Positions 23,797 to 25,620 of a stretch of 64,000 nt of DNA are shown here, in pieces. The notes beneath the pieces are model-generated. The model ran no database searches and had not been told where the DNA came from. It saw nothing but the letters and a program-made list of their open reading frames with translations. Every line of letters starts with the position of its first letter. Positions within the stretch are counted from its first letter, which is position 1. This DNA is from Nannocystis pusilla. Its GTDB lineage: Bacteria > Myxococcota_A > Polyangia > Nannocystales > Nannocystaceae. A program made the translations under genes and the position numbers. The stretch lies in NCBI RefSeq assembly GCF_049060185.1, contig NZ_JBMEQO010000002.1; one strand, written 5' to 3'.

Positions 23797-25620
23797 TCAG
23801 GTCGAGGAGGGCCGCCGCGGCGGCGGGGTCGGCGACGACGACGCGGGTGAGGCGCTTGCCGGCGAGGGCGACGGGCTGGCCTTCGGGGCATGTCGCAGAA
23901 GACGTGTCCGAAAGGCGGGCGAGGAGCCCGGCCGGGTCGGCGAGCTCGAGCTCGAGCTCCGGGACGTCGGGGAACTCGGCGGCGAGGGCCTCGGCGGCCG
24001 CGAGGTCGGGCGCGACCAGCCACAGCGAGCGCGGCCTGGCGGCGGCCGCGAGGGCGCGAGCGTCGAGGCGCGGGCGCGCGGGGCGGCCGGTCGCGAGGGG
24101 CCGGCGCCCAGCAGGGGCAGGCGGATTCGGCGAGGCGCCGCGGGGCCGGGCGCAGCGGTCAGCGAGACGGCGGGAGGGAGATGTTTCGCGGGGCCGGTCG
24201 CCGCGGTCGATGAGATGTCGTGAGGGACATGTCCTGCAGGACCGAGAGTGGAGGTCGGCGAGACGGCGGGAGGATGCTCTTCAGGGCCGATGGCTGCGGC
24301 CGGCGAGGTGTCGTGAGGGACATGTCCCGCGTGACCGGTCGCGGCGTTCAGCGAGATGTCGTGAGGGACATGTCCCTCGGGGCTGGTCGCTACGAGAGCC
24401 GGGGCGGCGTCATCGGCACCGGCTGTCCGCGCGTCGCGGCCTGCGCGGGCCTCGGCCATGCCGGCGGCGGCCTCGTCGGCGGTGCCGGCCCACGCGTCGA
24501 TGCTGTCCTCGGGGACATGTTCCGAAAGCCCGGCGGCGAGGGCCCGCTCGGCGAGGACGCGGCGCAGGCGGGCGGCGGCGTGCTGGCGGCTGGCCGGGTC
24601 GCCGCCGTAGGCGACGGGGGCGTGATGGTCGGCGCCGGCGTCGACGCGCAGGACCTCGAAGGCTTGGCCGGCGAGGTCGGCCCGGACGTCGTCGAGGCGG
24701 TCGCACAGGGGCTGCAAGTAGCAGTGCTTGCAGCGCTCGGGGGCGCGGCAGTCGAGCGGGATGTCGTGCTCGAGCAGCAGCGCGTACTCCTCCTTGCGGC
24801 CGCGGACCTCCTCGATCAGCTTGTGCGGGTCCTGGATCAGGTCCTCGAAGCCCTCGAGGTGCTGCGGCGGGAACCGGTTGAGCCAGACGTGGACGCCGGG
24901 CTGGCGGGCGTAGGCGAAGGCGGCGAGCAGGTATGGCCGCATGGCCTCGAGGTCGTAGAAGAGAATCTCGCGGCCCTCGCTGTAGGCGCGGCCGAACGGG
25001 ATGACGTGCAGCAGGTCGAACTCGCGCACGCCCATGGCGGTGAAGGTGGCCATGAGCTCGGGCAGCTGCTTGACGTTGCCGCGGTTGACGCAGACGTCGA
25101 TGTTGACGATCGGCCGACCGTCGGCGAGCGCGCCCTGCAGGCCCTTGACCTCCTCGTCGAAGGCGCCCTTGGTGCCGACGAGGGCGTCGTGGATCCGGGC
25201 GTTGGGGCCGTGGATCGAGAACGTGATCTCGCTGAGGCCGGCGTCCAGGGCGGCCCGCAAGAAGGCCGGATAGGCGAACATGCGGCCGTTGGTGACGGTC
25301 TGGATCTTGCGATACCCGGCGCGCCGCCCGAGGCGCACGAAGTCGACGAAGTTGGGGTGAATGGTGGGCTCGCCGCCGGAGAGGATGAGGCGGGTGGCGC
25401 CGCGCCGGCGGCCGTCGAGGATCTGGGCCTTGATCTCGTCGCGGTCGCGGTTGGTGCCGTCGTGCGTGTGCGCGTCGAGGCAGAACACGCAGCGGTCGTT
25501 GCAGTCGAACGTCAGCCGGACCCAGTTGCGCCGCTCGTGCGCCGCCTCTTCGTGCTGCACCGCGGTGGCGGAGAGCGTCCATTCCGGGGCAATGTACCCG
25601 GGGCCCCGCGCAGGCCGCAA
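23797..25620 (-). CDS. radical SAM protein (core ~330 aa at 24630-25620) with C-terminal Cys cluster; long low-complexity/repeat tail may be non-coding
   Basis: CX3CX2C motif in FDCNDRCVFCLD. GGEPTIHP (SAM-binding). C-terminal CRAPERCKHCYLQPLC. The tail 23797-24600 carries the GHVPHDIS repeats created by tandem GGACATGTCC-containing DNA repeats. Confidence 0.65.
   Translation of the reverse strand: MRPARGPGYIAPEWTLSATAVQHEEAAHERRNWVRLTFDCNDRCVFCLDAHTHDGTNRDRDEIKAQILDGRRRGATRLILSGGEPTIHPNFVDFVRLGRRAGYRKIQTVTNGRMFAYPAFLRAALDAGLSEITFSIHGPNARIHDALVGTKGAFDEEVKGLQGALADGRPIVNIDVCVNRGNVKQLPELMATFTAMGVREFDLLHVIPFGRAYSEGREILFYDLEAMRPYLLAAFAYARQPGVHVWLNRFPPQHLEGFEDLIQDPHKLIEEVRGRKEEYALLLEHDIPLDCRAPERCKHCYLQPLCDRLDDVRADLAGQAFEVLRVDAGADHHAPVAYGGDPASRQHAAARLRRVLAERALAAGLSEHVPEDSIDAWAGTADEAAAGMAEARAGRDARTAGADDAAPALVATSPEGHVPHDISLNAATGHAGHVPHDTSPAAAIGPEEHPPAVSPTSTLGPAGHVPHDISSTAATGPAKHLPPAVSLTAAPGPAAPRRIRLPLLGAGPSRPAAPRARASTLAPSRPPPGRARCGWSRPTSRPPRPSPPSSPTSRSSSSSSPTRPGSSPAFRTRLLRHAPKASPSPSPASASPASSSPTPPPRRPSST
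24170..24400. repeat. tandem imperfect ~47/93-bp repeats each carrying gatgtcgtgagGGACATGTCC
   Basis: Exact GGACATGTCC at 24225, 24318 and 24366 with shared 11-bp left flank. Further variants at 23886, 23901 and 24513. Confidence 0.6.

Follow-up and report, generated by a model that had tools for sequence, protein, structure and literature searches.

What lies behind the core of a radical S-adenosylmethionine (radical-SAM) enzyme on the minus strand of a 64-kb stretch of Nannocystis pusilla DNA (72% GC; hereafter the window) is not obvious from the assembled sequence, in which the open reading frame (ORF) at 23797..25620 runs from the core into repetitive DNA. An initial annotation made from the letters alone had described 23797-24630 as tandem repeats encoding GHVPHD(I/T)S peptides and had offered two readings, a disordered repeat tail created by expansion of a palindromic element, or a non-coding repeat region with the real stop hidden by a frameshift, followed by a separate small Cys protein. 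The minus-strand ORF translates exactly to the peptide string quoted there. Comparison with relatives makes it very probable that 24133-24589 is a translated, disordered linker, containing palindrome-bearing tandem units, within a single two-domain radical-SAM enzyme of ~735 amino acids, and that the apparent tail, the stop and the small Cys protein result from under-calling of homopolymers. The parts of the restored gene and the sites at which its frame is broken are listed here (GC3, GC content at third codon positions).

23375..25582, minus strand: full radical-SAM gene, restored; ~735 codons, ATG at 25582, TGA at 23377-23375
24590..25582, minus strand: radical-SAM core; CNDRCVFC (CX3CX2C), then an invariant CX5CX2CX5C cluster
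24133..24589, minus strand: hypervariable inter-domain linker, ~150 amino acids here
23375..24079, minus strand: conserved C-terminal alpha/beta domain, ending C-x44-C-x2-C-x5-C-x-G-x-H (CKTCSFDHGCKGMHINYVRAHGF); read in two frames here
25570..25571: homopolymer deletion of 2 bases; true N-terminus MDALPATAVQ... destroyed
24080..24083: frameshift site 1; G-run (plus-strand view of a C-run) of 4 here and 5 in N. sp. RBIL2 and N. pusilla Na p29
23723..23727: frameshift site 2; G-run of 5 here and 7 in N. pusilla Na p29, other relatives also having two more bases
23378..23380: homopolymer deletion of 1 base; true stop lost, the small Cys ORF extending to 23197
23797..24079, minus strand: out-of-frame tail RARASTLAPS...PRRPSST, up to the stop, of the annotated 587-residue protein; almost certainly artefactual, GC3 in the wrong phase

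Comparison loci comprised six cultured Nannocystis (L001-L006) and 36 other Nannocystaceae/Polyangia loci of similar GC; the closest relatives used for DNA alignment were N. sp. RBIL2 (L001) and N. pusilla Na p29 (L002), and linker and conservation statistics were taken from an alignment of 93 homologues. Complete orthologues in Nannocystis and in other Nannocystaceae/Polyangia are single proteins of ~520-760 amino acids in which a hypervariable linker joins a radical-SAM core to a conserved C-terminal domain. When the window protein was rebuilt across its frames, single-chain orthologues of 701-763 amino acids covered 98% of it, including those of N. sp. RBIL2 (701 amino acids), N. punicea (730) and N. 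bainbridge (747). Its best homologues were single proteins of 600-754 amino acids, and hundreds of Nannocystaceae and Myxococcales proteins of ~600-650 amino acids matched it as well. An ORF of at least 520 codons extended from the start of the core match in 37 of the 38 loci where the ORF stayed within its contig. No orthologue stopped after the CX5CX2CX5C cluster, and the repeat region was coding in all of them; orthologues ending right behind this cluster, which the initial annotation had named as evidence against a translated repeat, were not encountered, all complete ones reading on. The proposed separate small Cys protein is the end of the C-terminal domain of the same enzyme in these orthologues.

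The assembly divides the gene into two ORFs (23797..25620 and 23197..23655) and a frame-1 stretch that lacks a start. In a phase plot, GC3 was ~0.97 in the radical-SAM frame from 25600 to ~24600, weak or lost over 24500-24150 (~0.7 in the linker), 0.92 in a different frame over 24100-23760, where that frame has no ATG, GTG or TTG start, and back in the first frame over 23720-23400, which corresponds to the small Cys ORF. The radical-SAM frame had no stop from 24630 to 24080. Beyond ~24080 the open frame as originally translated does not hold, with GC3 moving to another frame and orthologous DNA revealing a 1-nt deletion at this point. Alignment against four Nannocystis species placed the deletions at site 1 (1 base) and site 2 (2 bases); in N. 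punicea and N. exedens there is no homopolymer at site 1, and the extra base is present nevertheless. Reading past site 1 should continue ...PAAPARPRLDARAL..., and past site 2 ...DRAPPRLVLRQ.... The annotated N. pusilla product, WP_421068110.1 (P0007; 587 amino acids), was the sole carrier of the RARASTLAPS...SST tail, which is absent from orthologues.

Similar losses were found around the gene. Over ~11 kb (17.5-28.3 kb) the window lacked one or two bases carried by both RBIL2 and Na p29 at 12 sites, about one per kb and mostly in G/C runs (17878, 19284, 19611, 20137, 20184, 23378-80, 23723-27, 24080-83, 25570-71, 25763, 27460 and 28240), of which 25763 and 27460 fall in the neighbouring double-radical-SAM gene. 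The reverse case, bases present in the window and missing from both relatives, did not occur in the same ~11 kb. Window-only losses of this kind are what homopolymer under-calling produces, and an assembly artefact is therefore almost certainly the origin of the stop at 23797, of the tail rich in Pro, Ser and Arg and of the small Cys ORF as a separate unit. The indels would then be sequencing errors rather than mutations, and many ORFs in the window are likely to be artefactually frameshifted. Under-called runs (-2 at 25570, -1 at 24080, -2 at 23723 and -1 at 23378) would account for the false tail, the stop at 23797 and the small Cys ORF. The initial suspicion of a frameshift was borne out, in the form of four homopolymer deletions; the non-coding repeat that had been coupled to it was not.

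It is very unlikely that the frameshifts are real, that is, that the gene is a pseudogene or truncated variant and that the 587-residue product with its Pro/Ser/Arg tail is truly encoded. The sequence as given does contain the stop at 23797, and NCBI annotates the protein accordingly, but 12 missing-base sites in ~11 kb, mostly in homopolymers, break at least two adjacent conserved genes in addition to the start and stop of this one, a density incompatible with a viable genome and typical of homopolymer under-calling. Moreover, decay is not apparent, the out-of-frame segments retaining a GC3 of ~0.92 in the ancestral frame. Programmed frameshifting was considered and rejected, as the frame is broken by deletions that are specific to the window, lie mostly in homopolymers and affect neighbouring genes too.

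The core satisfied the description of the radical SAM superfamily, with CNDRCVFC present and a match to PF04055 of 69.8 bits (cutoff 29.5). AlphaFold2 modelling of the RBIL2 orthologue with the 93 homologues gave a predicted template modelling score (pTM) of 0.81, with per-residue confidence (pLDDT) above 90 in most of the core and the whole C-terminal domain and below 50 in linker residues ~360-463. Foldseek searches against the PDB returned only radical-SAM enzymes (BlsE, viperin, SkfB and MoaA being nearest) in alignments of ~200-300 residues, consistent with the core, and gave no fold for the alpha/beta C-terminal domain of ~230 amino acids. Pfam and NCBIfam searches with the rebuilt C-terminal 218 amino acids yielded no domain, only a faint BAT match and a match of its tail to HxsC4. 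The C-terminal cysteines C627, C672, C675 and C681 were invariant in 93 of 93 sequences. Together with C-x5-C-x2-C-x5-C after the core (24700-24760), the C-terminal C...C-x2-C-x5-C makes eight invariant extra cysteines, in two groups set apart by an insertion of ~330 amino acids (linker plus alpha/beta domain). Radical-SAM enzymes of the SPASM/twitch type bind one or two extra [4Fe-4S] clusters in a C-terminal Cys-rich domain (CX2CX5CX3C-type motif). A Pfam scan of the protein gave no match to SPASM; judged by their arrangement, the extra cysteines may form an auxiliary-cluster domain like that of SPASM/twitch enzymes, but split in two and related to the HxsC4 C-terminus.

The radical-SAM maturases HxsC and HxsC4 (TIGR03977 and NF038332) were the best-scoring curated families for the core, and the last 50 amino acids, with C-x2-C-x5-C, matched positions 287-335 of the HxsC4 model, which is its C-terminus. 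Unlike these families, the enzyme has the ~330-residue insertion between core and C-terminal Cys motif, and its scores were far lower: 83.4 against a cutoff of 267.9 and 86.3 against 500 for the window ORF, and 108.9 against the HxsC4 cutoff of 500 for the intact Na p29 orthologue. A further mark of these maturases is a genomic setting with a His-Xaa-Ser repeat peptide (HxsA), HxsB and HxsD; no HxsA-type peptide was seen among the ORFs examined. As all scores fall far below the family cutoffs, the protein is by this measure an uncharacterised radical-SAM family and not a member of the Hxs system.

The repeat itself occupies part of the linker, with related sites elsewhere in the gene.

24138..24390, minus strand: tandem array of five 48/45-bp units (TSPEGHVPHDISLNAA, TGHAGHVPHDTSPAAA, IGPEEHPPAVSPTST, LGPAGHVPHDISSTAA, TGPAKHLPPAVSLTAA), equivalent to a 93-bp super-repeat
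24214..24234: palindrome copy GAGATGTC-gtgagg-GACATGTC, two units at 14-bp phase
24307..24327: palindrome copy with 1 mismatch to the 21-mer
24355..24375: palindrome copy
24512..24523: lone palindrome copy GGGACATGTTCC, encoding SEHVPEDS
23885..23909: degenerate phased pair GGCATGTC-gcagaa-GACGTGTC in a variable loop of the C-terminal domain

The 21-mer GATGTCGTGAGGGACATGTCC, which encodes GHVPHD(I/T)S on the minus strand, has exact copies at 24214 and 24355 and a copy with a single mismatch at 24307, with none expected in shuffled sequence. The copies are thus spaced by 93 and 48 bp, which corrects the 47 bp given initially for one of the intervals. Tandem Repeats Finder reported the span 24138-24390 both as a 48-bp unit in 5.3 copies (69% matches) and as a 93-bp unit in 2.3 copies (73% matches), with scores of 170 and 247, and a separate repeat search (families D1 and D2) gave an identical register. 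Repeat, peptide and palindrome are accordingly as first described, although the tandem repeat covers only ~250 of the 834 nt then assigned to it. In line with the further variants noted down to 23886, there is a degenerate pair at 23885-23909, which encodes SDTSSATCPEG (SDMSSATCPEG in relatives). The lone copy at 24512..24523 is a site common to 6 of 6 cultured Nannocystis loci, where it reads (S/P)GH(V/A)PED(S/M), with exact GACATGTC in 4 of 6. In terms of palindrome units the 21-mer comprises two in phase and the peptide TGPSGHVPHDIS three; three phased units read in frame give TGP(S/A)GHVPHD(I/T)S.

Linker length, measured between GGDPAS and RLPLLG, ranged from 10 to 169 amino acids (median 43), the shortest occurring in orthologues outside Nannocystis, and was 58, 82, 84 or 153 amino acids within N. 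pusilla. Per-column conservation was 0.03-0.06 in the linker vs 0.8-0.96 in the domains. The window linker amounts to the RBIL2-type linker with one additional 93-bp super-unit. Separate arrays, each with its own period, occupied the same place in N. bainbridge (54 bp x 3.5, 91% identity), N. exedens (72 bp x 3.7, 90% identity) and the uncultured relative L043 (75 bp x 1.9), and the linker of N. pusilla Na p29 had none. All array periods (48/93, 54, 72 and 75 bp) are multiples of three, as expected if they are translated. The proposed disordered repeat tail survives in that the units are in frame, palindrome-bearing and predicted to be disordered, and fails in its position, the repeat forming a linker between two conserved domains. 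Two metagenomic homologues from outside Nannocystis (P0013 and P0015) had short repeats of unrelated sequence in the corresponding linker (DVPGDRSDVPGDRS, for instance), which indicates that this position is generically repeat-prone, independently of the palindrome.

The supposition that the repeat is a non-coding spacer, between a radical-SAM gene ending near 24600 and a separate small Cys gene, is barely credible. The weak GC3 over 24500-24150 and the hairpin-capable palindromes, which gave the RNA fold of the array a z-score of -2.45, would suit such a spacer; yet the radical-SAM frame has no stop between 24630 and 24080, every orthologue reads through, the frame-1 segment that follows is without a start codon and the C-terminal cysteines are invariant in single-chain orthologues. 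An Rfam scan of the whole window matched no RNA family. A reading of the array as an RNA element was rejected, the folding z-score being taken as a by-product of pairing between adjacent palindromes.

The repeats are translated, and the peptide could in principle be what is selected, whether as a His-rich metal-binding or substrate-docking module or as an intramolecular analogue of the His-Xaa-Ser substrate of HxsB/HxsC. Among NCBIfam families, core and C-terminal tail are most similar to HxsC and HxsC4, and the repeats are rich in His and in frame, all array periods being multiples of 3; but a period that keeps the frame would be expected just as much of any insertion that a coding linker tolerates, HxsC scores lie far under the family cutoffs and there is no H-x-S periodicity. 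Nor is the peptide conserved: it is GHVPPAISS in N. bainbridge, GHVPHATSP in N. exedens and DDMSASPAS, without His, in L043, while Na p29 has no array and linkers outside Nannocystis are as short as 10 amino acids. Every array carries GGACATGTCC, with GGGACATGTCC in every unit, and all four linker copies in L043 read D-M-S, not G-H-V. What the lineages share is hence the DNA motif and not the peptide, and the D-M-S reading together with the array-less Na p29 speaks against selection for a function of the peptide, whether His-Xaa-Ser-like or other. A selected module appears very improbable, and its specific form as a His-Xaa-Ser substrate mimic was rejected, there being no HxS periodicity and no conservation of the peptide.

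Palindromic sequence of this kind was not confined to the linker. The 10-mer GGACATGTCC occurred 9 times in the window (0.05 expected) and the 8-mer GACATGTC 14 times (0.4 expected); in 78 kb from the six cultured Nannocystis loci the latter was present 50 times vs 0.43 expected. It was not enriched in the 36 other Nannocystaceae/Polyangia loci (3 vs 2.6 expected in 358 kb). The 10-mer is more than 100-fold over-represented in cultured Nannocystis. When exact copies were paired with copies carrying at most two mismatches, the distances between them peaked sharply at 14 bp (47 vs ~0.6 expected), with a second peak at 28 bp (11). Many of the anchors for this phasing are orthologous or tandem and thus not independent; 14-bp phasing was also found at window sites outside the linker, as at 41853/41867, 56115/56129 and 28690-28745. 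The element consists of 2-4 units, each an 8-mer with a 6-nt spacer, giving composites of 22-36 bp. Further palindrome sites in the window are at 21531, 22124, 22629, 28718, 36290, 36390 and 40547. Copies lay in coding and in intergenic DNA and were read as G-H-V, D-M-S and T-C-P. Three sites in the TPR gene were kept in 6 of 6 cultured Nannocystis species. At two of them, comparison with the outgroups L012 and L032 showed no length change (GHV vs NGE; GDMSFTPCPEDQ vs GDRGWSPETSVK), and the absence of an indel implies that the palindrome was gained there by substitution or conversion, not by insertion.

Palindromic repeats that are tolerated within genes, where they add peptide in permissive loops or linkers, are known from Rickettsia palindromic elements, repetitive extragenic palindromic sequences (REP) and bacterial interspersed mosaic elements (BIME), and miniature inverted-repeat transposable elements (MITEs), with sizes of ~100-150 bp. 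The resemblance lies in palindromic repeats inside genes; the elements described here differ in being 8-mer units in 22-36 bp composites and in having two coding sites without insertion. Were the palindrome units small mobile insertions of this type (MITE, REP or Rickettsia palindromic element-like) that landed in frame instead of being made in place, the Nannocystis linkers, 50-150 amino acids longer than in relatives without the motif, and the composite 22-36 bp structure, found also between genes, would find an explanation. Against this, the units had no terminal repeats or target duplications, and discrete insertions relative to element-free orthologues were not seen at the two TPR-gene sites, where length is unchanged with respect to the outgroups; the linker is too variable to decide. 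On balance, an origin by mobile insertion is unlikely.

A closer parallel is HIP1 (GCGATCGC), the highly iterated palindrome of cyanobacteria. HIP1 is reported to be over-represented 15- to 300-fold and conserved both in non-coding DNA and in every reading frame, with its function unknown (PMC5861425, PMC4390886); an origin by substitution or conversion has been reported for it. The Nannocystis sequence is likewise a short palindrome, over-represented ~35-fold (8-mer) to more than 100-fold (10-mer) in a 142-kb sample, found both inside and outside coding sequence and in several frames, with positions conserved between species and gained without indels at the two sites compared. It differs in sequence, GGACATGTCC containing A/T in a 72% GC genome, in phylum (Myxococcota), and in the grouping of 2-4 units in sharp 14-bp phase, an arrangement of which the parts consulted of the same sources (PMC4390886, PMC5861425) gave no description for HIP1. 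We found no publication on such a palindrome or repeat element in Nannocystis or myxobacteria.

We tentatively propose, as a possibility that could readily go either way, that cultured Nannocystis carry an undescribed genome-wide palindrome analogous to HIP1, GGACATGTCC, in local arrays of 2-4 units at exactly 14 bp, which substitution or conversion would write into coding sequence, with G-H-V, D-M-S and T-C-P as footprints in the peptide, and which would seed species-specific tandem expansions where the protein tolerates them. The palindrome sample of 142 kb is small and centred on one locus, and for this reason genome-wide spread is put forward as a hypothesis only. The driver, selective or mutational, is suggested by the 14-bp phasing to be a protein that binds or modifies DNA, or the formation of hairpins by neighbouring units; the CATG/ACATGT core would be a plausible target of a cognate orphan DNA methyltransferase.

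In the enzyme, the 48/93-bp array would have arisen by slippage or unequal recombination of units carrying GGACATGTCC and degenerate copies at 14 bp. The GHVPHD(I/T)S peptide would then be a by-product of a DNA-level motif and not a selected protein module, and the linker would most likely act only as a flexible tether whose length is free to vary. Direct observations are the repeat and its frame, the architecture of the orthologues, where the indels lie, how variable the linker is, the low AlphaFold2 confidence and the restriction of the motif to one clade in several frames; from these we infer the slippage mechanism, the tether role and the origin of the indels in sequencing error rather than mutation. 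In most respects the array resembles coding repeats of variable number (VNTR-like) in disordered bacterial linkers, which share in-frame periods, copy numbers that vary between strains or species, low-complexity Pro/Ala/Ser/Thr/Gly composition, low structure confidence and conserved flanking domains; it differs in that its units are seeded by a specific palindrome over-represented in all Nannocystis sequence examined, and in that lineages differ in the frame in which they read this DNA.

Several points weigh against this interpretation of the locus. The linker is disordered according to a model, that of the RBIL2 orthologue, and that the palindrome promotes duplication is deduced from its co-occurrence with the arrays. 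The His/Pro-rich repeats may have a function, for example in metal binding or partner docking. The indels come from a single assembly, and real mutations in this strain are formally possible. The two internal deletions total 3 nt, the pattern of compensating mutations; yet the stop at 23797 separates them, so that no compensation results.

For annotation, the consequence is that WP_421068110.1 (587 amino acids) and the downstream small Cys ORF are to be corrected to fragments of one enzyme of ~735 amino acids, and that no biological meaning should be given to the RARASTLAPS...SST tail. This stretch of the assembly loses ~1 base per kb, mostly in G/C homopolymers, and the same caution applies to other odd ORFs within it. 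The linker offers a handy length-polymorphic marker between Nannocystis strains, and a natural experiment in which a radical-SAM core and a C-terminal Cys domain tolerate tethers of 10 to ~170 residues. A variable low-complexity linker combined with sequencing error is ordinary; the clade-specific, 14-bp-phased palindrome is the more interesting by-product. If it proves genome-wide, it would provide a second independent system, in another phylum, for asking why bacteria saturate their genomes with one palindrome, a question that is open for HIP1.

The genes adjoining the radical-SAM gene are conserved with it. The divergent neighbour at 25623-28037 (plus strand) encodes a fusion of a B12-binding radical-SAM protein and a second radical-SAM protein; it is one ORF of 915 amino acids in N. 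pusilla Na p29 (L002, 3453-6200) and is divided here into three overlapping ORFs by similar indels. The 915-residue protein gave only faint matches to HxsB and HxsC (E = 4e-4 and 8e-7). Directly downstream of the radical-SAM gene lies the TPR gene (21314-23371), with a product of ~685-735 amino acids, and the three genes form a conserved, uncharacterised radical-SAM neighbourhood. Over the whole 64 kb the plus strand contained 39% G vs 33% C, a GC skew of ~+0.09 that amounts to a strong strand asymmetry.

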